A stretch of DNA of 64,000 bases, from NCBI GenBank assembly GCA_963732675.1, contig CAVTAJ010000013.1, positions 98,137 to 162,136 of the forward strand, read 5' to 3'. The notes beneath the pieces were generated by a model. It saw nothing but the letters and a program-made list of their open reading frames with translations, made no database searches and had not been told where the DNA came from. The DNA is from Nitrospirota bacterium. Lineage in GTDB: Bacteria > Nitrospirota > UBA9217. Below, one piece after another: positions 21,981 to 64,000 of the stretch; the stretch's first letter is position 1, and every line of letters begins with the position of its first letter. Made by a program: the position numbers and the translations under genes.

Positions 21981-22278
21981 CGCTTCCGGAACGTGCGTGA
22001 CGGGGCGATCTGTTCGGAGAGCCTTGATTTTACCCTCATGCTTCCTTTTATATCGTTTTTCTGCGAAAATCTGCTTCAAACCTCATGCGTAAAGACGACA
22101 GGTTGCGTCCCTGTACTTTAAAAAAGAGTTAGAGCTTTTCGTTTCAAAAAGGTGTATACTGATGTTTCCTGGAAAGGACGTCTGATCCAGACGAGAACCT
22201 TCCGGAGCAACCCCCCTCGACAAAGAAACTGCAGTTCGTTATGAGTACATCAGCCCAGTCGATGAAAAGGAGAACACG

Positions 22279-30788: not shown

Positions 30789-30905
30789 AATAATCGACTT
30801 ATTACGAAATCATCAATAATAAAGATGGATATAAAAAATTCAAAACCTGTTGATCCTGTTCTCCTGAAAAAATAGGTTTTGTTTTTTCTGTTCTCGTATG
30901 AACAA

Positions 30906-33806
30906 TTAAAACAACGACGGCATCCAGAGCGACACATAGACCTGGGACTCGCCTTTGTCGTCAAATCCGTGCGCATACACGATTCGGAACGTGATGGGGA
31001 GATAGTATGTCAGGTTCGTGTCGAGCCGGACCTCGGCGCCGGCAGATCGTTTGAATTCCCTGCTGCGGAATGCGTTGTCCCAGGCGTTGCCGGCTTCGGC
31101 AAAGACCGCGCCGTGGACGCGGCGTAAAAAGACGGGAGTGCTGCTCCAGCCCAATTCGATGTCCTTGATGGGGAAGCGGTATTCAAGGCTCGCGAGAGCG
31201 GCCTTTCTTCCCCGAAATTCATTGATCCGGTAGCCTCGCAAGTAGACCGACTCGTCATCAACCTGTAGTAACGTGTCACCAGGATTATCGCCGCCGACCT
31301 GGAACGCGCCCTGGGGCATCACATCCCCGGCCGAGTTCCCGGCAAAGGCCCGGACCTGAAGTACGTGGTGTTTCCAGGGAAAGTTGATGAACTCATGCCA
31401 GTCTGCGGTATACTTGGTGATGTCGAAATCGCTGCCGATCGATTTATCGTAACGTTTATACCCTACTTCTATGGTCCTGCCGTCCTCCGGGCTGATGGAA
31501 AAACCATACTTTTTCGCATTGTTGAAGAGATAAACGGCGCGGCCCGACGCCAGAGTGCCCTCGGCGGGAAGGGGACCGCGATAGCCGGGCCAGGGCGGGA
31601 GTTGGGTAAGCGCTGAAATTTCTTTCCTCCGATACCCGATGAGCAGGGCGTGCTGTTTCTGAAACTTGAGCAGGGGAAACAGGAGCGATGCATCAAGGGT
31701 CTTCTCACGCTGCACATAATCCTTTGACCCGGTCGCATCGATCAGCAGATCACTGAACGTCCTATCCACATCCGATGCCGCGACCCGGATGGTCGGGTAC
31801 AGCCCGTCATAGGCATAGTTGAACTCATACCACTTGCGGTACGTTTTGGGGCTGTAGAGGCCGGCCAATGCATAGGAGTGGCGTTCGACCGCGTCCTGGC
31901 CGAACGTCAGAAACCCGAAAAGGTCACGGCTTTCTTCACTAAACCCGTACCAGGGAATCCAGAAGCGCGGGACAAGCGTGGGGAGGGGATTGTATGAGCT
32001 CGTTTTCATTTCAACCGGTTTCTCGGCATAGGTGACCGCAGGATACCGGTCCTGGCAGGGTTCCGCCGATTTCCAGGATGCGGAGTCCGCAGGCCGCAGG
32101 TGAATATCGTACCCTGCGGAACTGTAAGACGAGAACACGAGCGTTTTCCCGTCCGGTGAGGGCGCAGGCGAGAACGCGCCGCCCAGTACGTTCGTTATCT
32201 GGTAGATCTTCTTTGTTGCGCGTTCATAGGCATAGAGGTTGAAGATGCCGGTACGGTCCGAGGAAAAGTAGATGATCTTGCCGTCGGGACTCCATGTTGC
32301 GTTTCCGTCGATCGCGCGATCGTGCATCAGTTCTTCGATCTTGTTTCCCCGTTCGTCGAGGACCTGGATATCTTTGTAGCCGCCCGGATGCGATAGGCCC
32401 GTAACGATCAGGGTCCCGTCCGGACTGTATCGCGGCGTTTCGTACTGGTCCGCGGTCTCTTCGGAAAGCCAGGTGACATCGGCTTCCCTGACTGCGTGGT
32501 TCTTTGCTGCAGCAATATCGAGCGAAGCGAGACGGTTCCTGCCGAGCTTGTTCACAACAAAGATGAGCTTCTTATTGTCCGGCGAAGGATAGGGGTCGCG
32601 GGCGCGGAGTCCATCCGTAATACGCATTTCCTTGTTCTTCTCGCAGGTCGTAGATAATAGATGTCATTGTAGATGTCCGTGTTCCTGATGACATCGATTT
32701 TTGTATAGTAAATACCGCTGCCGTCAGGGCTCCAGGCGATGCTTTCGCCCGAGGAGGTCGAGGAGGTCGTGTTCTCTACCAGCTTGCGGTCTCCGGTCCC
32801 GTCCGCGTTCATGATATAGATGGCGGGGAATTCATCCTCATTCGAAACAGCGTAGGCTATGCTTTTCCCATCAGGCGAGAAAACAGGAGAGTCGTTTACG
32901 AACCCTCGCCGGGTCAGGGCAAGCGAGGCCGTCAGGCCCTTTGCGCTCAATTCATCCCGTGTTTTTTCGTAGCGCGTTTTTAACTCCTTTTGCCATTCAT
33001 CCCAGAGGTCGCTGTACCATTGACCCAACGTCCATCGTCCATTCGCATCCACGAGCCATGGTATACCGTAGTAGCTGTAGCGCGTGGAAATGTTGGCGAG
33101 TTTTTCCCTGCCGTACTTATCAGCGATGAAGCGAGTGAAACCCTTCGCCGAAGAGGTACGGGACCTGACCCGAGGGCCAGAAGTCGGGGAATACCGTGGC
33201 CTGGGAGAGTCGCGGAAACTTGTCTTCGAGCACGGCCATGCGAATCACCATCTCGGAGCCGGGTGAACGGCCGCGGCCGCCGGAAGTCTGCTCCGTTTCT
33301 TCATAGGTGGCAAGGCCTTCGATCATCCAGATGGGCTCGAAGAGGTTCGGGAAATAGAGCCTGCCGAAGATATACTGGAGAAAATCGGGGACGCCGTGGA
33401 CCATGTCGAGATGCAGGATGTGCGTGTATTCGTGAGTGATGAGCGTTCTCATCCAGTCATCATAGGCCGTTGTTCCGAAACCCGGAGCGCCAATGGGCGG
33501 CGTGAGGTAAAGCGTAATATGGTTATAGGGAAACGGTGTGGTCAGGCCGTTCGTGGCATCTTGAGCATCGACAAGGACGATGTGCGTCCGGCCCTTCGGC
33601 TCCCACTTGATGCGCGGGACCAGCCGCACGTGCACGTCCTCGGCGATGACCGCGGTACGCTTCGCGATCTCCTCTTCACCCTGGTGATAGTGGATGGAAA
33701 AGTGCGGTGTCTCGAGCGTGGTCCAGGTGAAGGCCGGGTCGAATTTGGCGAATGCAGGCGAGGCGCTGAACAGGAAAGCCGAGAAGAGGAAAAGGATCTT
33801 TTTCAA
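30906..33806 (-). CDS. about 965-aa secreted/outer-membrane fusion of gluzincin-type metallopeptidase (HEYTH...E), PD40/TolB-like beta-propeller repeats and a C-terminal Omp85-type beta-barrel; two frame changes (about 33115 and 32620)
   Basis: Three collinear ORF-track pieces. First: signal peptide MKKILFLFSAFLFSASPAFA and ITHEYTHILHLD...EGLATYEE. Second: PD40-like SPDGKSIAY / WSPDGSGIYY / YSPDGTLIV / WSPDGKIIYF / PSPDGKTLVF. Third: a C-terminal barrel ending VYAHGFDDKGESQVYVSLWMPSLF. Confidence 0.75.
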
Positions 33807-39119: not shown

Positions 39120-40858
39120 TTAAATGGTTCCGTTGGATGAGTTCAACTGGTTCATAAGCGTCTGCATGTCTGTCGCGGTCAGCCCTGATTTGTTCATTGT
39201 TGACCCCATGAACGTTGTCATCGCAGTGGCCAGCCCACTTGTTCCTGCCGTGGACTGCATCATGGTGCCGCCGCCCATCATGCCTCCACCCATGCCGCCC
39301 ATGGTGATAGACGTGCCGCCCATCATGCCGTTCATGATACCATCCGATGCGTCATTCATCATGGCCGTTATCAGCGCTGCGGGATCGGTCATGCTGTTTG
39401 TCTGGGCATACTGAGACATGGCGGCAATGCAAATGCCGTAGTTCTTCATGGCCGTCGTCTGTACCTCCGGATACTAATTCAGCCGCGTTCATCGGCATCG
39501 TCTGGAGGATGTCAGTGACCATGAAGTAATTGCCCACGGACGTGTTTGCCGCAGCGATGTTCGCGCCGGTCATGCCGCCTGCCATGTTGTTGGCCATGGC
39601 CTGGGCCATTGATGTAAGGGGTGTCATCTGAATGCCGGTGACCGTGCTTCCGCTTGAAATGTTCGGAATGACTGCGGTCATGATATCGCCGGACAACATG
39701 GTCATGGTCGTGCCGGTTGCCAGGTTCGTCATACGAGCCTCCGCTCATCTTGAGCATGACGGGACCGGAATAGGCGCCGAGGGACAGGCTGAAGCTGCCC
39801 ATGCTGTTCGTGGTCCCGCTGGCCAGCTGCGCACCCATGGCGCCGCCAGTCATTGAATATGCCATGACCGTGGAGTCGCTCATCGACCCGTTGAAGACCG
39901 ATCCGCTGACCATCCCGTTCATCATCGTTCCTCCTCCGCTCTGAATGGTGCCGGTCGCCGAGGAAGCTAAGTGGTTCATGAGTGTCTGCATGTCCGTCGC
40001 GGTTACGCCTGACTTATTCATGGTGGATGTGATGAACGTCGCCATTTCCGAGGCGAGCCCGCTTGTTCCCGCCGTTGTGGTCATCATGGAGCTGCCGGTC
40101 ATCATACCGCCCATCATGATCGGCGTACTTCCCATCAAGCCGTTCATGACCCCGTCCGACGCGTCGCTCATCATGGACGTGACCATGCTTGACGAGGAGG
40201 TCATTCCCATGTCCTTTGCGGACTGCGACATGGCGGCGATGGCCATCCCGTAGTTTTTCATGTCCTGGGTTGCCGTGCCGCTCGAACCTGACACCAGCGG
40301 GTTCATGGGCTGTGTATGCAGGATATCAGTGACCATGAAGTAATTGCCCACGGACGTGTTTGCCGCTGCGATGTTCGTGCCGGTCATGCCGCCTGCCATG
40401 TTGTTAGCCATGGTCTGGGCCATGGAGGTAAGCGGGGTCATTTGAATTCCCGTTATGGTACGTTCCGCTGTCACCGAGGGAATGACAAGCGGTCATCACG
40501 TCGCCGGGAGACATGGTCATGGTGGCTCCCGTTGCTTCATCTATATAGGATCCACCGCTCATCTGGAGCATGACAGGACCGGTGTAAGCGCCCATCGTCA
40601 TGCTGAAATTGCCCTGCGAGTCCGTTGTTCCACTGGCCACCTGAGTGCCCATGACTCCATTTGTGATGCCGTATGCCATTACCGTTGCTCCGCTTACCGG
40701 CCCTTTAACCGCTGTGCCGCTGATGGTTCCGCTATTTGTAGCAGGAGTTGTCCCGTTGTCGCTGCCGCCGCTCCCCCTCCGCAACCAGAAAGCAGCGACA
40801 TGGACCCGATCAAGAGCGTGAGAGCCAAAATTACGCGTAGATTTCTGTTTCTTTTCAC
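39120..40858 (-). pseudogene. about 580-aa extremely Met-rich lipoprotein made of two tandem units of about 285 aa; interrupted as sequenced by about 4 frame changes (about 40795, 40480, 39735 and 39452)
   Basis: GTG at 40858 follows AAGGAGG. VKRNRNLRVILALTLLIGSMSLLSGC is a lipobox. Four overlapping ORF-track fragments (40404..40910, 39512..40474, 39352..39732, 39120..39449) read through collinearly. Unit 1 (ISGTAVKGPVSGATVMAYGITNG...TGIQMTPLTSMAQTMANNMAGGMTG...MKNYGMAIAAMSQ...) is repeated as unit 2 (VSGSVFNGSMSDSTVMAYSMTGG...TGIQMTPLTSMAQAMANNMAGGMTG...MKNYGICIAAMSQ...). Confidence 0.75.
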
Positions 40859-54427: not shown

Positions 54428-55816
54428 CTACTCTAATCCGTATTTCTTCACCTGATATCGCAGAGTATCATAGCTGACCTGCAGGAGCTTGGCCGCCTGT
54501 GCCTTATTATTTTTCGTCCGCTCCAGCGCCTGAACGATCAGCCCCTTTTCCACTTCATCGAGCGATATGCCGGTTTCGGGGAGCGCGAACTTCGCGACCG
54601 GTGGTTGGCTGACGATGCCTGATTGACCGGTCAACCAGTTCGGCAGATGCTTCGGGAGGATCTCCTCCGCGCTTTCCAGTACCACAAGCCTTTCCACAAG
54701 GTTCCGCAGCTCCCGGACATTTCCCGGCCATGCGTAGGATTCCATGAGTTTTTCCGATTCCGGCGAGAAGCGTTTTATCGATTTCTTATTATACCGCTGG
54801 GCGATGTGCGAGAGAAAATAGCCGGCCACGAGCGGAATGTCCTCTTTCCGCTCCCTGAGCGGGGGCACATGCAGATAGAAGATGCTCAAGCGGTAGAACA
54901 GGTCCATTCTGAATTCGCCTTTTTCCACCGCTTCCGAGAGGTTCCTGTTCGTCGTTGCTATGACCGTTACATCGACGGGGATCTCCTCACTCCCGCCGAT
55001 CGGCCGTACGGTCCGCTCCTCCAGCACCCGCAGGAGCTTGCCCTGAAGGTTCTGCTTCATGTCGCCGATCTCATCGAGAAGGATCGACCCGCCCTGCGCC
55101 ATTTCAAACAAGCCCTTCTTGGCCGACCGGGCATCGGTAAACGAGCCCTTTTCGTATCCGAAGAGCTCGCTCTCCAGGAGGGTCTCGGGCAGGGCCACGC
55201 AGTTCAACTTGATGAACGGGGAAAACCCCGACCGACCCTCATCACGGATCAACCGGTGGGCATACCGCGCGAACAGTTCCTTCCCGGTCCCGCTCTCCCC
55301 GGTGATGAGGAGCGTGGAGACCGAGGCCTCGGCCATCATCTCTATTTTTGACTTTAATTCCCGCACTGCCGCTGACCCGCCGATGATCTCCTTCTCAAAG
55401 ACCTCTGACTGCACCTTTCGGAGATAATCGACCTCCTGTTTCAATTGTCCTTTTTCAATGATGTTGTGGAGAACGATCTTGACCTCATCGACATTGAACG
55501 GCTTCGTGAGATAATCCGCGGCACCAAGCTTCATCGCCTTCACCGCGGTCTCCGCCGTGTCGTCAGCCGTCAGCATGACGACCTGGAGCGGGAGTTCCTC
55601 CTTGACGATCTCCTTCAGGACATCGATGCCGTTCCGGTCGGCGATCCGGATATCGAGGAGGACGACGGCGGGGGACCAGGCCTTGATCTTGCTCACGATA
55701 TCGTCCGCATCGGTCGCTGTTCGGACCTCGTATCCACCGTTCTTCAGCACCCGCGAGAGCATGGAAATAATGAGCTCATCATCATCAACGAGAAAGATCT
55801 TCTCTTTGTTTTTCAT
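54428..55816 (-). CDS. sigma54-dependent NtrC-family response regulator (REC-AAA+-HTH)
   Basis: REC: IFLVDDDELII...VVLLDIRIADRNG...KPF. AAA+: TLLITGESGTGKELFARYAH, GSILLDEIGDM, and GAFTGA-like ESELFGYEKGSFTDA. C-terminal Fis-type HTH: NKAQAAKLLQVSYDTLRYQVKKYGL. Confidence 0.9.
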   Translation of the reverse strand: MKNKEKIFLVDDDELIISMLSRVLKNGGYEVRTATDADDIVSKIKAWSPAVVLLDIRIADRNGIDVLKEIVKEELPLQVVMLTADDTAETAVKAMKLGAADYLTKPFNVDEVKIVLHNIIEKGQLKQEVDYLRKVQSEVFEKEIIGGSAAVRELKSKIEMMAEASVSTLLITGESGTGKELFARYAHRLIRDEGRSGFSPFIKLNCVALPETLLESELFGYEKGSFTDARSAKKGLFEMAQGGSILLDEIGDMKQNLQGKLLRVLEERTVRPIGGSEEIPVDVTVIATTNRNLSEAVEKGEFRMDLFYRLSIFYLHVPPLRERKEDIPLVAGYFLSHIAQRYNKKSIKRFSPESEKLMESYAWPGNVRELRNLVERLVVLESAEEILPKHLPNWLTGQSGIVSQPPVAKFALPETGISLDEVEKGLIVQALERTKNNKAQAAKLLQVSYDTLRYQVKKYGLE

Positions 55817-57651
55817 ACCGTGTGTACCCTTTCCGGATGTGTTGCCATGAGGCTGATTTTAAAGGTGACGCCTCCGCTTGCGTTCTTTTCGATGCTGATC
55901 CTCCCCCCATGGTCCTCGATCAGCCGTTTCGAGATCGCCAGCCCCAATCCGGTCCCTTTTGGTTTCGTCGTGAAAAACGGATGGAATATCTTGTCCATCA
56001 CCGCAGCGCTTATTCCCTTGCCCGTATCGGATATTTCCACCAGAACGACCTGAGCTGCCGCATCGAACAGGGTTTTCATGGTCAGGGTGCCGCCGTCCTG
56101 CATGGCGTCAACGGCATTCAGGATCAGGTTCATGAATACCTGCTTCAGCTGCATGGGGTCGGCCGTGATCATCGGAAGCCGGCTGTCGAAATCCTTCACG
56201 ACAGCGATCGTCCGCGAAGACCCCGGCGTGCGGGACTGATCTTGCAACACCAGGCCTGAAACGCCGGAAAGGACCTCGTTCACATCCGTTTCAGCGAATC
56301 GGGGCCGGGGCGGTCGGGCAAAACTGAGGAGACCCTGTATTAACGATTCTATCCGCCTGATCTCGTCGATCACTTTCACGAGGACGCCCCGGTCCTCTTC
56401 CGGCATGTACGGCTCATTGGAGAGGACCTCGATCGACACCTTGATGCCGGCAAGGGGGTTCTTGATCTCGTGCGCGAGACCGGCTGCCAGCTCTCCCACC
56501 ATCTTGAGCTGTTCAGCCCGCTGCATTTTTTCCTCCGCCTCTTTCCGCGCGGTGAGGTCGCGGTCGATCGCGAGAATATATTTATGGCCCCCGAGTTGGA
56601 GCAGGGTGGCGCTGATCTCGATCGGGAACAGCGTGCCGTCTTTTTTTCGATGTTCGGTCTCTACCTCGAGCACTTCCCCGTTGAGTATCTGCCTGATCCT
56701 CTCCGGCGCGCCCGCAGCGAACTCAGGCGTGTCGAGGCTTGCTATGTGCATCCCCAGGAGCTCCTCGATCGTATAGTCGTGCATCGCCGCCGCGGCCGGA
56801 TTTGCCGCAACGATCCTGCCTGCCTGCGCCCCTTCGGCATCCAGGATAAAGATGGAATCCGTCGCGGTTTCAAACAACAGCCGATAACGCTTCTCGCTTT
56901 CCTCGATTTTCTGCAGATGTTCCCTGAGCGATCCCGCCATCGCATTAAATCCGACCGCCAGTTCCGCGAACTCGTCCCGGAGCCCTTCGATCCGGTACTC
57001 CAGGTCGCCTGCCTTCAATTTTCTCGTTGCATCGAGGAGGACATGGATCGGCCCCGTAACGCCCCTGATCACCGTAATGGCCAGTACCGCGATCAGCAAG
57101 GGACCGGCGGCGACGAGCAGGATCAGGAAGATCCTCGTCTGATGCACTTCCCGCAGGGCGTTTTCAGTCCGGTTGTTGAGCCTCTTGGTGGTCATGACGA
57201 TCATGGTATTGATCTTGCTGATGAGAGAACGACTGATGAGGCGGGCGGCTTCCTGTTCTGCCTGAAACCGGCGGGACTTCGCCTTCAGGGTCAATACGCT
57301 GCTTACTGCATGGCCATAGTGGTCGATCTGCTTTTGCAGATCACGAAGTTCCTCCATCACGAGCTCGTTATGGTGACAATTAAAACAGGTGTTGATGGAA
57401 TCCCCCATATCGCGTACGTGCCTGGAGACCGCGTCGACGCTCTCCGCGTTCTGTACGCCTTGCGAATACAGGTCCGCCTGTACCTCGCGAATATTCAGCA
57501 AAAGGCGCTCTCTCAGTATCTCAACCTGATGGGACGTGATAATTTTTTCGAACCGCGATGCGTTGGCATCGATCGCCTTGATGAGGTAGATACCCCCCAG
57601 GAGAAAGAGCAGGGACACGACACCGAGGACTATGATGATCTTTTTTTTCAT
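55813..57651 (-). CDS. sensor histidine kinase: periplasmic helical domain with a CxxCH haem-c motif, then HAMP, PAS, HisKA and HATPase_c
   Basis: TM1 IIIVLGVVSLLFLLGGIYLI. Periplasmic segment of about 135 aa containing NTCFNCHHN (codons at 57373-57387). TM2 IFLILLVAAGPLLIAVLAITV. H-box LAHEIKNPL. N and G boxes: NLILNAVDAM...DTGKGI...GTGLGLAI. Confidence 0.85.
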   Translation of the reverse strand: MKKKIIIVLGVVSLLFLLGGIYLIKAIDANASRFEKIITSHQVEILRERLLLNIREVQADLYSQGVQNAESVDAVSRHVRDMGDSINTCFNCHHNELVMEELRDLQKQIDHYGHAVSSVLTLKAKSRRFQAEQEAARLISRSLISKINTMIVMTTKRLNNRTENALREVHQTRIFLILLVAAGPLLIAVLAITVIRGVTGPIHVLLDATRKLKAGDLEYRIEGLRDEFAELAVGFNAMAGSLREHLQKIEESEKRYRLLFETATDSIFILDAEGAQAGRIVAANPAAAAMHDYTIEELLGMHIASLDTPEFAAGAPERIRQILNGEVLEVETEHRKKDGTLFPIEISATLLQLGGHKYILAIDRDLTARKEAEEKMQRAEQLKMVGELAAGLAHEIKNPLAGIKVSIEVLSNEPYMPEEDRGVLVKVIDEIRRIESLIQGLLSFARPPRPRFAETDVNEVLSGVSGLVLQDQSRTPGSSRTIAVVKDFDSRLPMITADPMQLKQVFMNLILNAVDAMQDGGTLTMKTLFDAAAQVVLVEISDTGKGISAAVMDKIFHPFFTTKPKGTGLGLAISKRLIEDHGGRISIEKNASGGVTFKISLMATHPERVHTV

Positions 57652-58156
57652 GATTAACGGGGAACGTTACGGCACCTTGCTGCGAGGAGATTATACAACC
57701 AGAACAGTACTGCTAGCTCTGTAGTTTTGGGCCATCCGGTTTCGTGCGGTTTGCTCACCCACTGAACAACGGCGTTCAGATCGACGGGCTGGTCTCATAA
57801 CTCCTTTGAAGGGTCTCATCCGGGACACGTCTGTGATGAAGAGCGTAAAACTTCGTTATCTTAACGCAAATGTAACATCCTGTCAATATACCAAAATATC
57901 GCTGTCAAGCCAAAGCTAAAATGTCCTTTTTTGGATGTGTCCTGCAGCCCTGTTCTAGTTTTAACCTTTGCTTTTTCCGGAGTTACCATGGCACACTCAC
58001 GTTTTTAAATGGTAGAATAATAAAAAGTTTTTGGCTTAGCATGAAGAACCTTCGGGGTATTGAAAAACCCCGGATAAAGGTATATCCTGGGACGATTCTT
58101 CTGCTCCTACGGATTCGAGCACGTAACGGCATTAGCAATATATGATGTCATTTTGT

Positions 58157-58188: not shown

Positions 58189-58262
58189 GATATGAAGAAG
58201 TAAACAGGGTAGTTTATGATGGACCTTCCATCATGACCGTAATTAAATTCAGGGAGGACGAT

Positions 58263-59456
58263 ATGAAAATATCAATAATGTCTTTTGTTCTCGTGATTGT
58301 GATTGCCGTCATACCTTATGGTTTGGAAGGAACGGTGTATGCGTTTCATGAAAGTGCAGATAGTTGTCCGGGTTGCCATAACTGGTCTGCTTCTTCAGGA
58401 ACATCATCGGGAACAGCAACCAGTGGTCAAATAATATCTTCGGGCGCAACAACAGTCGCAAGTCATCCCTATAATTTGATAGGCAGCGACCAGAGTTCTA
58501 CCTGCCTCAGATGCCATGCTGCACCATACAACCAGGTACTTTCGCAAGAACACTACGTCATGTCCATCATCACGAACATTACAAGTACTGCCATGCCGGC
58601 GGGGAGGACTCCGGGTGGAGACTTCGCCTGGACTAAGGTCGGCAACGCTGAAGTAAATCCTGCTTCGTTCCACGGGCACAACATTGTAGCTCTCGATTAT
58701 GGGCTCGAGGCCTCTGCTGATTATGTCGAAGCCCCGGGCGGTTCGTATCCTTCATCCAGCCTGGCATGCTCAAGCTGCCATGACCCGCACGGCACCGGTG
58801 TATCCTACAGACGACTGGGCGGGGTCGGTTATTCTTCGAAGAGCGCGCCGGACAAGGCATTTACCAAATCCGCCCCTATCGCGGTCGCTCCCTCGAAATA
58901 TAACAGGTCAGAAGCATCAACCGATACACGCGTGGCCTATGGGAAAGGAATGTCCGAATGGTGTAAGAATTGCCATCCCCTGGATCAATCGCATCCCTCT
59001 GGAGATTACTCAAAACTCACAAAGGATGTCGTGTCAAATTACAATACGTTTATCAATACCAATAACTATGCTGGTAAACAGGAGACCGCTTATACTTCCC
59101 TTGTTCCTTTTGAAGAAGGGACAGACGATATTGCAATCCTCTCCTCTCATGCGAAATACGACAATTCTCAGATGGGCGGGCCGAAGACGGGAAATGAGAA
59201 CGTGATGTGCCTCACCTGCCATAGGGCACATGCATCGGGCTGGCCCCACATATTTCGGTGGAACTCCAAAGGTTTTTATATGGTCGTAGATGGCGCATAT
59301 CCTGGTATCGATGCGGGCACTGAAGGCGGGAAAGACCCTCAAGTCAACCTCGGCTATACCCAGGCGCAAACACGTGCCGCATACTACGACCGGCCTGCGT
59401 CAAAGTATGCCTCAATGCAAAAAAGCCTCTGCAACAAATGCCACTTGAAAGACTGA
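58263..59456 (+). CDS. omcS: OmcS-family hexahaem c-type cytochrome (homologue of the nanowire-forming cytochrome)
   Basis: ATG at 58263 follows AGGGAGG. Signal peptide ...GTVYA|FHES. Six CxxCH motifs: CPGCH, CLRCH, CSSCH, CKNCH, CLTCH, CNKCH. Long collinear matches to G. sulfurreducens OmcS as I recall it: GHNIVA.DY...APGG.YP...CSSCHDPHG, YR.LGG.GY, AVAPS.YNR.EA.T.TRVAYG.GMSEWC.NCH, SL.PFEEGT.D, C.CHRAHASG, AAYY.R...K.....Q..LCNKCH.KD. Confidence 0.85.
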   Translation: MKISIMSFVLVIVIAVIPYGLEGTVYAFHESADSCPGCHNWSASSGTSSGTATSGQIISSGATTVASHPYNLIGSDQSSTCLRCHAAPYNQVLSQEHYVMSIITNITSTAMPAGRTPGGDFAWTKVGNAEVNPASFHGHNIVALDYGLEASADYVEAPGGSYPSSSLACSSCHDPHGTGVSYRRLGGVGYSSKSAPDKAFTKSAPIAVAPSKYNRSEASTDTRVAYGKGMSEWCKNCHPLDQSHPSGDYSKLTKDVVSNYNTFINTNNYAGKQETAYTSLVPFEEGTDDIAILSSHAKYDNSQMGGPKTGNENVMCLTCHRAHASGWPHIFRWNSKGFYMVVDGAYPGIDAGTEGGKDPQVNLGYTQAQTRAAYYDRPASKYASMQKSLCNKCHLKD

Positions 59457-59618: not shown

Positions 59619-60528
59619 CTATTTGAGCGGAGTGAACATCTGAATCCGGCTGTTGGCCCTGTCCGCGACAAAGAGATCTCCGTCCTTATTGACGCAGATC
59701 TGCGCGGGATATCGGACCGTGCCTTCCTTCCACCCCAGACTCAGCAACCTGTTCCGAAAGGTGCCGTCCTGTCCGATCGCGACGATACCGCCGCTGTTTT
59801 GATCGCTGATGAAAAGCATGCCCTTTTCATCCGCAACTATGTTCGAAGCAAACTTCAAATCTTCTTTCATTGTTCCGGTGATCGGGGCAAAGGCACTGGG
59901 GTCCTTGGCATTGGAATAAACCATCGCCTTGACGCCGTCAGTTAAGAAAACCGTCCCTTTCGAGTTGACGGCCAGGTCGGTAATAAATCCGTACTCCTTC
60001 GGGAAGTCGATCTGCCTCTGAAATTTTCCCGTCCGCATCGAGGACCAGCACCCTCCCTGCCAGGACATCGAGCAGATAGATGTTGTCACCGCCGTCAAGA
60101 TCGATGCCGGCCGGAACGACCATGCTCTCCGTCGGCCATCCCGCAAGTTCGACATATTGCTTAAAAGCGCCTTCAGGCGTGAGCCGGACAACCTTCCGTT
60201 GCCGCTCGTCGAGGACGAAAATGTCTCCTTTTGAATTGATCCTGACCCGTACAGGATAGACCACCTGCGGAAGTTTTATTTCTTTTCCGCCCTTGGGCTC
60301 CCCGTTCTGCAGTGTAAAGAGAACGAGCCTCCCGTTGCCGGTGTCGGCGACCACCAGACGATCATCTTTGCAGGCGATCCCTTCCGGCTGGTTCAAACCA
60401 TTCCCTTTTTCATCGGCATACGCCGAAAACGCATATTTGATTACTACCTGCTCCGCCCCGAATGCATGCAGCGGCAGCAGTAAAACGATCATCAGTACAA
60501 TCAAACGGCTCATTATCGTTCCTCGCAT
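59619..60528 (-). CDS. secreted NHL-repeat six-bladed beta-propeller protein; one frame change near 60028
   Basis: Signal peptide MSRLIVLMIVLLLPLHAFGA. Repeated blades: PEGIACKDDRLVVADTGNGRLVLF, VRINSKGDIFVLDERQRKVVRL, GIDLDGGDNIYLLDVLAGRVLVLD, LAVNSKGTVFLTD, IVADEKGMLFISDQNSGGIV, ICVNKDGDLFVADRANSRIQMF. Confidence 0.8.
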
Positions 60529-60532
60529 GTTC

Positions 60533-61887
60533 TTACCTCTTATATTCCACGTGGCATTGAGTACAAAGTTCGGACGTCGTCGGCGAACGGAAGCATATGC
60601 TTGAATTCCGTTCCGTGCGCCCGGTGACAGCTCAGGCACTGTACCGTCAGGTTCTTGTTTCTTTTATCGATGACCTTGTCACCGACCGGATGGGTCGAGT
60701 GTTTCATATAGTCGTGACACTGTGCCGCAGAGCTCGATGGTCGATCGGCTGGGTGAACAGCAGCACATTGTCGGAAGCATGGGGAGAATGGCAGACAATG
60801 CACTTCCCCTCCTTTATCGGTTCATGTTTCGTCATCGAATTTTCCTGGCGCTGGATCGTATCCGCATGGCATGTCCCGCAGAGCCGGACCGGAGGCGCCT
60901 TCAAGAGCGGCTGCTCTGCGGCGACGCATGAGGGTTGTGACAATTGAGGCAGCCGTCTTTCCCCATGACAGGCCAATGGAGGCGGTTTTTGGCGAACATT
61001 TCGTTGACCATCGTTGTTGTGGCATCCCCTGCACAATTCAAAGCCCTTTTTCTTCAGGGCGAGCGGATTGGGAGACGTCGGCGCTTTCATGGCACAGACT
61101 GCACGTCTTATTGGCAAAGGGCGGATGGGCCGTATTATAGATCATCCCGGCCTTGTCGGAGCCGTGCACGTTGTGACACATGGTGCAGCGGCTATTTGCC
61201 CACGGGATAATTCATCGTGCTGTTTGACGAAGAGGGGTTTATCGATCTGGTGGCATTCTTTGCAGAGCCCGGGCACCTCGTTTTTCAGCAGGGCCGCGGC
61301 CTTCGGGGAGCCATGCGGATTGTGGCAGTTGATGCACCCTTTCTCCACCGGGTCGTGCTTGAATTTGACCTTTGCAATCGCCTCCACCTTTTCTTTATGG
61401 CAGCCAAGCACAGTTCATTGCCGCCTTGCGCAGGTTGTTCTTGTTGTCCGAGGCGTGCGGGTCGTGGCACTGGACGCATTTGCCTTCGAGAGCGACCTTG
61501 TGCGTGCTGCGCGCGTCCTGCGGCAGGATCCTGGCATGGCACGTGAGGCAGATCCGTGCTCACCTCCGCCGACAACTGTTTCGGGATAATTCGCGCGCGT
61601 GCGGGCTGTGACACGGCGATACAGCCCGGTTTTTACAGGGCGTGTGGACCGAAGGGCTTTTTCAGCTTGTCCTCGAATTCCGCGTGGCACGTCAGGCAGA
61701 CCTTTTGCTGGGCGCCCGGTTTCAGCCTGAATTTACTCTCGGTACTTTCTTTGCTGACCGCTGTGTTCTTGTCGCCTTGGTTGTTTTCGTCCCCTTGCTT
61801 TGCCGTTTCGCCGCATCTGCCTGCGGCGCAACACAGAGGCACATCACCGAAAGGGCCAATATGACGCATATTGGTTCGTAATTTCAT
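60533..61887 (-). pseudogene. multihaem c-type cytochrome of about 450 aa with about 16 CxxCH in c7-like modules; the reading frame changes at least about 10 times as sequenced
   Basis: ATG at 61887 follows GAGGAG, 22 nt after the stop of the upstream cytochrome. CxxCH-bearing fragments lie in all three minus frames: CLTCH, CVQCH, CINCH, CKECH, CTMCH, CSLCH, CRGCH, CLNCH, CGTCH, CIVCH, CLSCH, CTQCH. Confidence 0.7.
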
Positions 61888-61909
61888 ACCATGCTCCTCT
61901 ATTTCGTTT

Positions 61910-63880
61910 TTACAAGATGTGACAGTCATCGCACGATCTGCCCGCAAAGGGGGCGATGCACGTGTTTTTTAAAGAATTTCGGGTCCTTCGACGCATGCGG
62001 GTCATGGCAGCTCTTGCAGTTCATGACAGACGCGTCAATGTAGATGTGGGCGCTTCTTGAACGAATCCCCTTTCACGTCGTGGCACTGAGCTGCAGAGAG
62101 CCAGGACGGCTGGCGAGCAGCCTTCTGCTGCGACGACATGTGGGCATGTGGCAGATCAGGCAATCGCCCGCTGCCGGCGGGTGCTTGTTTTCCTTGCCCA
62201 TCCGCTCCTTCAGTTCTTTGTGGCAGGCCAGGCACATATCGGGGGACTGCGCCAGCAGCAGTTTGGCGAGTTTCGTCTGATGGGGACTGTGGCACTTCGT
62301 GCACGAGACCGTCCTCGACAGGCTTATGCCTGTCCGCGGACGACTTGAGCGCTTACTCTGGTTGTATGGCAGCCAGACAGAGGACGCTCTGGTTCTTGAC
62401 GATCATGCCGTCATTGTTGCTGGCATGGGGGGTGTGGCAACCCATGCAGAGACCTTTTCCGAAGGGCGGATGGACGATATTGTCCTTCACCTCTTTCATG
62501 AGGTCGCCGTGGCACTGTGCGCAGAGTTTCGGTCCTGCGCCTTGAGCAGTTTTCCCTCGGTCTGAGCCGTGGCCGTTATGGCAGGAGAAGCACTGCGCCG
62601 TCCTGTACGGGTTTATGGACGGTTTTTTCACAAAGCCGGTCTCCGCGTCGTAATGGCACGAGTAGCAGACCTTGTCCATCCTGTCTTGGCCATCAGCGGG
62701 GCAAATTCGAACCGTGAGGGTTGTGGCACGTGGTGCACATCGCCTCGGCGAAAGGCGGATGGACGGTGCTTGAATTTCTGCGCCTCCTTTACTTTCTCAT
62801 GACAGGTGAAGCAGAGGCTCGCGCCTTTTGCAGTGAGCAGATGTTCGTTCTTGGCGGCATGCGGCGAATGGCAGGAGACGCCCTCCTGCTTCAACGGCCG
62901 GGTGGGGGAAAGCGACCTTTGTTCCTTTGTCCGCGTGACAGTCGAAGCACAGAGCTTATTGCCGCTTTTATCAGGAGCTTCGGGTTCTCCGAGGCATGGG
63001 GGTTATGACACTGGACGCACATCCCATCCTTGAAGGGCGTGTGCTCATGGTGCCGCCCGCCTTGAGATCGTCGCGCGCATGACACTGCTGCGCAAAGATC
63101 GCCGATGGCGCCTTCCTTCAACTGAAGGGCTTGCCCGTGTTCGGCGCGTTATGGCACATGTCGCAGCTCCCCGTAACGACCGGGTTATGCGCGCTCGCCT
63201 TCATGAGCTTCGGCTGGTCCGAGGAGTGGGGATTATGGCAGACCGTGCAGGATTTCGTCTTGAACGGGATAGTTGCCGTGCGCCTTCTTGAACGCGGAAC
63301 CGCCGCTGTCGTGGCAGGACAGGCAGAGGGGCGTCTCAGCCTTTACCAGGAGGTTCTTCTGGTCCGCGCTGTGGGAAAGGTGGCACGCGCCGCACCCCTT
63401 CGTATTCAGGACCGCGTGCATTGTTTTCTTTTCATAGTTCTCTTTCTTGTGGCACTGAAAGCACAGGGCCTTGCCTTCTGCCTTCAGCAGATGGTCCGTT
63501 TGAGAGGCATGCGGATTGTGGCAGTCCGTGCATTTTCCCGCCTTTCAGGGCGGTATGCACGTTCGGCTTCATGCCCATTTTGTCCTTCGTGTGACAGTCA
63601 GGCAGAGATCGTTCCCTATCTTCTTCAGGATCAGTTTGGCGACAAGGCCGTGCCGAAGATGGCAGCCTTCGCACTTCTTCTCCTTCACTACCGCATGAAC
63701 ATTTTTCATCCCCAGGTACTTGTCCGTGAATTTGGTGTGGCAGTCCAGACAATCCTTGCGGGCGAATTTTTTCCGCGCCGCCGAACCGGTCCCCGCGAAC
63801 AGGACAATGCAGCACAGGAGCAAAACCGCCCCGAGAACTCTGAGTCCATTGTTTGTTAGCACGATCCGCATCACAATCAC
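61910..63880 (-). pseudogene. multihaem c-type cytochrome of about 655 aa with about 25 CxxCH; the reading frame changes at least about 12 times as sequenced
   Basis: Signal peptide MIVMRIVLTNNGLRVLGAVLLLCCIVLFAGTGSAA, then CLDCH, CEGCH, CFQCH, CGACH, CLSCH, CTVCH, CDMCH, CVQCH, CFDCH, CFTCH, CTTCH, CYSCH, CFSCH, CAQCH, CMGCH, CTKCH, CLACH, CLICH, CKSCH and CDDCH, spread over overlapping ORF-track fragments in different frames. Confidence 0.7.
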
Positions 63881-63901
63881 CCCATAAATAATTTTGAATC
63901 G

Positions 63902-64000
63902 CTAATTCCCCGTTCCCGATAGGTAGACCTTAACGTCGCCGGCGGCTCTCAGCTTGTGGAACCAGTCATCTATGGCCTTTACGACATCGTCGTTTGAGAC
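63902..64000 (-). CDS. 3-prime end of an upstream gene in the cytochrome operon; the C-terminus is possibly SurA/PpiD-like chaperone/PPIase (weak)
   Basis: My reverse translation gives ...VSNDDVVKAIDDWFHKLRAAGDVKVYLSGTGN*. The ORF is open to the window edge. Confidence 0.4.
   Translation of the reverse strand, partial: VSNDDVVKAIDDWFHKLRAAGDVKVYLSGTGN

Follow-up and report, generated by a model that had tools for sequence, protein, structure and literature searches.

Genes riddled with frameshifts are familiar from long-read metagenome assemblies: in assemblies and MAGs built from noisy long reads (Nanopore or PacBio CLR), single-base indels split conserved genes into different frames (proovframe, 10.1101/2021.08.23.457338; Sereika et al. 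2022, PMC9262707; Kastor, PMC12007338), as happens at the locus described here. The resemblance extends to their distribution over the whole assembly, to the essential genes among those hit and to the absence of accompanying substitutions. The Nanopore errors stressed in one of these studies (PMC9262707) are homopolymer-derived, whereas the indels reported here are biased towards insertions and lie mostly outside homopolymers. A further difference from the described cases of long-read fragmentation is that one 3-kb block stands at 13–20 times the background.

The second natural comparison is with genuine gene decay. Pseudogenes of the Mycobacterium leprae type carry many frame disruptions per gene, as do the two cytochrome genes of this locus (genes A and B). 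In real pseudogenes of this kind, nonsense and missense changes accumulate as well, motifs disappear, and there is a deletion bias along with larger deletions; none of these features was seen in genes A and B. By sequence, both genes belong to the doubled-CXXCH multihaem cytochromes (PF09699/TIGR01905; TIGR03508). The decahaem DmsE/MtrA type is far smaller than genes A and B (26 and 16 haems), and unlike that type the two genes, whose function is predicted, are clustered with a SurA-like PPIase and an NHL propeller.

The multihaem cytochrome cluster

The locus lies near one end of a 64,000-nt stretch of DNA (the window, positions 98137–162136 of contig C13) within a 2.96-Mb metagenome-assembled draft of 23 contigs, with 89% completeness and 3.9% contamination. 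Intact reference genes for the cluster came from a genome of the same genus, G006, with 80% DNA identity at the cluster. For the remainder of the window, the ORFs of a second relative, G004, which shares 90–94% DNA identity and is syntenic with positions 1438–57840, were aligned in a frame-aware manner. The relevant features, in window coordinates, are as follows.

54428..57651, minus strand: NtrC-like activator (462 aa) and sensor kinase (612 aa), used as control flanks
58233..59456, plus strand: OmcS-like multihaem cytochrome ORF, open, 407 aa, with a weak PF09699 match
59619..60528, minus strand: NHL-repeat beta-propeller gene, about 302 codons, with one one-base insertion near 60030; PF01436 matches its G006 orthologue
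60533..61887, minus strand: gene B, multihaem c-type cytochrome, about 448 codons, 16 CxxCH, doubled-CXXCH repeats, 18 frameshifts
60581..63601: patch dense in putative errors, 40 one-base indels that change the frame within 3.0 kb, or about 13 per kb
61910..63880, minus strand: gene A, multihaem c-type cytochrome, about 655 codons, doubled-CXXCH repeats, 22 frameshifts
63902..64000, minus strand: 3' end of a SurA-like PPIase gene (603 aa in total, running toward the contig end and open throughout; PF13145)

In G006 the entire cluster is open and encodes a SurA-like PPIase, a cytochrome of 654 aa with 26 CxxCH motifs (the gene A orthologue), a cytochrome of 443 aa with 16 CxxCH motifs (the gene B orthologue) and an NHL-repeat protein of 302 aa. 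PF09699, which has a curated cut-off of 20.6 bits, matched the read-through translation of gene A with 423 bits over 11 stretches (466 bits for the G006 orthologue) and that of gene B with 274 bits over 7 stretches (290 bits for the orthologue), placing both well above the cut-off. TIGR01905 likewise matched both cytochromes, and TIGR03508, the DmsE decahaem model, scored 297.8 and 198.9 bits against the two G006 orthologues, with a cut-off of 192.2. A signal-peptide-like segment was present at the N-terminus of gene A. In all likelihood, both multihaem cytochromes, periplasmic or extracellular proteins with 26 and 16 haems, are encoded by unbroken genes in the organism. The genes sit in a conserved cluster of SurA-like PPIase, cytochrome A, cytochrome B and NHL propeller.

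The named relatives of the cytochrome cluster were Nitrospirota MAGs, and judged by these the draft is itself a MAG of Nitrospirota type. When the read-through translation of gene A was searched against 5.8 billion proteins, repeat-sharing candidates swamped the results and no intact near-identical copy emerged, the best match having 49% identity. JGI metagenomes yielded no contig of the same species (best match 76% amino-acid identity), and exact-protein look-ups of two intact flanking genes gave no match.

Frame changes in the patch and across the assembly

A six-frame scan, with the minus strand translated over 60400–63950, gave 34 complete CxxCH motifs on that strand between 60565 and 63751, distributed over frames 0, 1 and 2 as 10, 15 and 9, and the ORF listing for the minus strand of the cytochrome stretch held only fragments of 30–137 codons. 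Frame changes were counted by aligning the G006 proteins to the DNA with a dynamic-programming scheme that had separate states for +1 and −1 frameshifts (BLOSUM62, penalty of 10 per frameshift). Gene A had 22 frameshifts between 63601 and 61912, comprising 13 one-base insertions and 9 one-base deletions, and gene B had 18 between 61866 and 60581, comprising 13 insertions and 5 deletions, which gives an insertion-to-deletion ratio of 26:14 for the pair. An earlier examination of the letters and ORFs alone (the sequence-only reading) had put the number by eye at about 12 or so for gene A and at least about 10 for gene B; the frame-aware alignment raised these figures to 40 in total. In a global DNA alignment to G006, small indels numbered about 55 and were almost all one base long.

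The edges of the patch were sharp. No frameshifts occurred in the roughly 2.1 kb that separate 63602 from the contig end, and only one was found in the 2.7 kb below 60581. The patch begins 279 nt inside gene A, these 279 nt being free of frameshifts, and ends 48 nt before the stop codon of gene B, so that it nearly equals the gene pair; its position is 1.9–5.2 kb from the end of contig C13. The density exceeds the 0.6–1.0 frameshifts per kb found elsewhere in the assembly by a factor of 13–20. On the flanks the sequence-only reading was accurate: the NtrC-like and kinase genes had no frameshifts relative to G004 (99.1% and 93.8% amino-acid identity, respectively), the OmcS-like ORF was open, and the NHL gene carried the single change that had been described. 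The disruption had also been called localised, which holds for the excess of about 13 per kb over 0.6–1.0 per kb but not for frame changes as such, since scattered frameshifts occur throughout the rest of the window.

In the comparison with G004, 26 of the 44 window genes contained at least one frameshift (48 in total, about 1 per kb), including those at 39459, 39730, 40023, 40487 and 40771. A genome-wide survey, in which 400 kb of contig C13 of G004 were compared with the whole draft, gave a similar picture for the rest of the genome, with frameshifts in 83 of 175 well-matched genes (129 in total, about 0.6–0.7 per kb). The affected genes of both surveys had 90–99% amino-acid identity to intact G004 orthologues. 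Counts along contig C5 were close to Poisson in 3-kb windows, and its genes contained 72 insertions against 37 deletions. Orthologues with frameshifts included ATP synthase alpha, RNA polymerase alpha, cysteinyl-tRNA ligase and SecY (NCBIfam equivalogs). For secY, rpoA and cysS, tblastn returned two adjacent high-scoring pairs in different frames in each case, with parts that were 96–99% identical (86% for the 3' part of cysS), and no second copy of any of the three was found in the genome. The frameshifts of secY, rpoA and cysS lie on C5 at about 146339, 150411 and 116200, respectively. These three genes cannot be pseudogenes in a living cell. The 8.2 kb of rpoB and rpoC contained no frameshifts.

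Two further dense patches were verified. One, at C5:61–67 kb, covers at least six genes internal to the contig, which we take from their sequences to be a Liv-type ABC transporter operon and a CBS-domain gene; it had 35 frameshifts in 5.4 kb, with 90–97% amino-acid identity and no stops. The other, in a methyltransferase/corrinoid cluster at C7:46–53 kb, had 18 frameshifts, 16 of them insertions.

The type of error was the same inside and outside the cytochrome patch. Among the 33 one-base events that could be localised in the patch, 23 were insertions (23:10), and 16 of these 23 had no identical neighbouring base. For the window background, the corresponding numbers were 32 insertions among 41 one-base events (32:9), with no identical neighbour for 23 of the 32. 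Based on the matching insertion bias and non-homopolymer contexts, patch and background look like one process at different intensity. Homopolymers and a recurrent motif had been named as contexts to check for the indels; most lay outside homopolymers, and no preferred base was seen at positions −7 to +7 in 55 insertion contexts.

Apart from the indels, the cytochrome genes showed no sign of decay. Once the frameshifts were allowed for, genes A and B contained no in-frame stop and retained 41 of 42 CxxCH motifs, in agreement with the preservation of these contexts noted from the sequence; the exception is a GVSCH at about 62880, with GGC where G006 has TGC. Amino-acid identity to G006 was 77% for the cytochromes and 68% for the NHL gene, and dN/dS relative to G006 (Nei-Gojobori) came to 0.21 in gene A and likewise in the NHL gene, and to 0.18 in gene B. 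Hence, the description of an indel-only pattern free of substitution decay was correct (no stops, dN/dS about 0.2). Neutral decay was simulated by placing random substitutions on the frame-corrected coding sequence of 3267 nt. With 40 substitutions, i.e. one per indel, the mean outcome was 1.25 stops and 3.3 destroyed CxxCH motifs, and freedom from stops combined with the loss of no more than one motif arose in just 4% of runs. At 80 substitutions and above (at least two per indel) this combination appeared in 0 of 2000 runs, and over the range of 40–400 substitutions the simulation yielded 1.3–12 stops and 3–24 lost motifs.

Origin of the frame changes

Considered together, these results indicate that the frame changes are very probably consensus errors in the deposited assembly rather than mutations in the organism, because the same type of error breaks about half of the genes that were checked, essential ones included. 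Moreover, the lesions are almost all ±1-nt indels with no accompanying substitutions, stops or motif loss, which speaks against gene decay. Insertion-dominated, context-free single-base errors are what is expected when a consensus is built thinly from noisy long reads, and the insertion-dominated, non-homopolymer profile suggests that such reads were probably the source. Single-base indels run through the whole consensus at about 0.6–1 per kb of coding sequence, and 60581–63601 would be a discrete block whose consensus derives from much poorer support, with a rate rising to about 13 per kb. We infer low local read support as the cause of the 13-to-20-fold excess; few reads, an unpolished segment of the backbone or a failed polishing window are candidate reasons for it. 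The frame disruption of the cytochromes is thus almost certainly not a real biological feature.

Several other causes of the local excess were considered and set aside. The sequence-only reading had suggested a consensus error in a repetitive, paralogous region, as one of three explanations that it left side by side. The first half of this suggestion, consensus error, is retained, but no paralogous DNA copy exists: a genome-wide blastn with the region as query matched only the region itself, and its internal repeats are short and diverged (29-nt motif-coding stretches at 66–86% identity and one 79-nt pair at 72%). An effect of the contig end alone does not account for the open SurA-like gene that separates the patch from the end of C13, nor for the C5 patch, which is internal. 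The GC content of the patch is ordinary (54–60%). Codon-usage Viterbi decoding and an ORF-coverage scan were noisy, called the cytochrome patch non-coding and served only to nominate other candidate patches; for those at C10:67–77 kb and at the end of C14, the same-genus genomes had no close matches. Classifying each indel by the open frame running through its site was confounded by spurious antisense ORFs.

Among the alternatives, the collapse of strains or alleles, in which diverged alleles were merged into a chimeric consensus with spurious single-base indels, is unlikely, though it is the least improbable of them; the frame changes would still be an artefact, and the local excess would mark real population diversity at the locus. 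The locus is indeed variable in the genus, with G004 losing synteny at window position 57840 and having only a 66% identical version, against 80% in the more distant G006, and the extent of the patch is almost that of the two cytochrome genes. Against such a collapse, the OmcS-like, NHL and SurA-like genes, which also lie beyond the synteny break, are clean or nearly so, the second dense patch in the Liv operon is syntenic with G004 at about 90% DNA identity, and the error profile of the patch is that of the assembly-wide background. Programmed recoding, i.e. expression through ribosomal frameshifting or transcriptional slippage, can be regarded as negligibly probable. Every fragment preserves its coding potential, which is all that speaks for it; it would need 40 events in 3 kb in both the +1 and −1 directions, the sites share no recurrent slippery motif or homopolymer, and the G006 orthologues are single open frames.

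Very recent inactivation, which the sequence-only reading had listed as an explanation, would mean that the cytochrome genes were inactivated in the organism and then acquired about 40 real indels. The indels are present in the deposited sequence, the long essential genes rpoB and rpoC are free of them, and frameshifts become rarer as genes become more conserved, all of which would fit real mutations. The evidence against real mutations is considerably stronger, and we regard true pseudogenes as very improbable. In bacterial mutation, base substitutions outnumber indels several-fold, roughly tenfold, and natural bacterial indels are deletion-biased and favour homopolymers. Here, 40 indels were accompanied by not a single nonsense codon and by the loss of one haem motif at most, an outcome with P of about 0.04 in the simulation even at one substitution per indel. 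Given this outcome and the several-fold excess of substitutions over indels in bacteria, real decay is excluded unless the mutational process was almost purely indel-generating. Nonsense codons, loss of essential residues and a dN/dS approaching 1, by which neutral decay marks genuine pseudogenes, were absent, and dN/dS was not raised relative to the NHL neighbour. The indel spectrum of genes A and B also lacked the deletion bias and the homopolymer or repeat contexts of the bacterial type, insertions being dominant and mostly outside homopolymers, and the same lesions occur in the single-copy genes secY, rpoA and cysS. There is very little room for the reading in which the indels are both real and very recent and an indel-only mutational process, or a multi-allelic, fast-diversifying cytochrome locus in the population, struck both extracellular-electron-transfer cytochrome genes far harder than their neighbours.

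The organism is best credited with intact 26-haem and 16-haem cytochromes and an NHL propeller beside the OmcS-like gene, and not with their loss. Since about half of the surveyed genes carry at least one frameshift, gene calls, pseudogene counts and completeness estimates for this genome need frame-aware comparison or re-polishing before they are trusted, and a gene reported from it as 'broken', 'split' or 'recoded' is an equally unreliable finding when no such check has been made.

Frameshift rate and gene conservation

The frameshift rate fell with conservation, from 1.46 per kb in genes of 80–90% identity to 0.17 per kb in those of at least 98%. This trend is partly circular, in that frameshifts depress the measured identity. 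Together with the clean rpoB and rpoC it sits less comfortably with a purely random artefact. Database-guided frameshift correction, as an explanation of the cleaner conserved genes, was considered unlikely because the genome contains no N, and frameshift-correction tools typically leave N at the sites they correct. Better read support in conserved regions of the metagenome could be a partial cause of the trend. Purifying selection on real mutations also yields a lower rate in conserved genes; as the cause of the trend observed here, the frameshifts in secY, rpoA and cysS argue against it.

Frameshifts in the remainder of the window

Based on frame-aware protein-to-DNA alignments against intact orthologues in the closest same-genus relative (G004), ±1 frameshifts were present in 26 of the 44 genes located between positions 1 and 57840 of the window. 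Hence, the window is also unclean beyond the cytochrome genes. The 48 frameshifts counted in these 26 genes were scattered, at a rate of about 1 per kb (for example at positions 2115, 2446, 8684, 11389, 12543, 22078-22241, 25230, 32226-32696, 39459-40771, 44971, 51042 and 52713). The gene at 30819-32825 was scored with 7 frameshifts against a 610-aa ORF of G004 (G004:C3, around 206694-208526). This reference ORF contains an arginine-rich stretch that appears to be out of frame, which suggests that occasional frameshift errors may occur in G004 as well, and part of the 7 frameshifts may be due to G004 and not to the window.

Uneven error density in the source genome

Frameshifts were also detected on other contigs of the source draft genome (G000), both as single-base indels that split single-copy essential genes into two frames and as further error-dense patches.

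Split genes and error-dense patches on contigs C5 and C7 of G000
G000:C5:145670-146966, secY, single-copy essential, two frames, one single-base indel
G000:C5:149823-150900, rpoA, single-copy essential, two frames, one single-base indel
G000:C5:115111-116677, cysS, single-copy essential, two frames, one single-base indel
G000:C5:61000-68000, Liv-type ABC transporter operon and CBS-domain gene, 35 frameshifts in 5.4 kb
G000:C7:46000-53000, methyltransferase/corrinoid-protein cluster, 18 frameshifts, of which 16 insertions

The secY, rpoA and cysS genes were 96-99% identical to those of G004, with the exception of the 3' part of cysS (86%). For the genes in the two dense patches, amino-acid identity to G004 was 78-99%, and no stops were found. 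The rpoB and rpoC genes (G000:C5:123410-131603) had open frames of 1337 aa and 1403 aa, respectively, with zero frameshifts over 8.2 kb. Such a stretch is improbable at the background rate, and the density of errors therefore differs strongly from one part of the assembly to another. Among the surveyed C5 genes (149 of 175), more conserved genes had fewer frameshifts: the rate was 1.46 per kb in those with 80-90% identity and 0.17 per kb in those with ≥98%.

Contig C10 of G000 (84 kb) has a GC content of 0.60, above that of the other contigs. Its 66-78 kb region was matched in same-genus genomes only by short pieces with 66-73% identity, and in frame tracking the number of frame switches on the same strand reached 25 per 4 kb. 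For C10, and for 67000-77000 in particular, possible explanations are that the contig was mis-binned or that this is one more very noisy patch. The contig end at G000:C14:119000-125612 had zero matches among five same-genus genomes.

Haem motif and genomic context of the cytochrome pair

One of the 42 haem motifs in the multihaem cytochrome pair reads GVSCH (window ~62868-62882, minus strand), where the equivalent in the more distant same-genus genome G006 is CLSCH; the codon is GGC, compared with TGC in G006. The motif directly adjoins a frameshift. It may result from an erroneous substitution, or it may be a real haem site with a single cysteine.

Synteny between G004 and the window ends at 57840. 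The G004 counterpart of the pair (G004:C3:259401-262428) is 66% identical and lies about 23 kb further on, and the G006 counterpart (G006:C22:77113-80468) is 80% identical and lies in a different context. Given these observations, the block of OmcS-like, NHL, cytochrome and PPIase genes appears to form an island that varies, or has been exchanged, within the genus.
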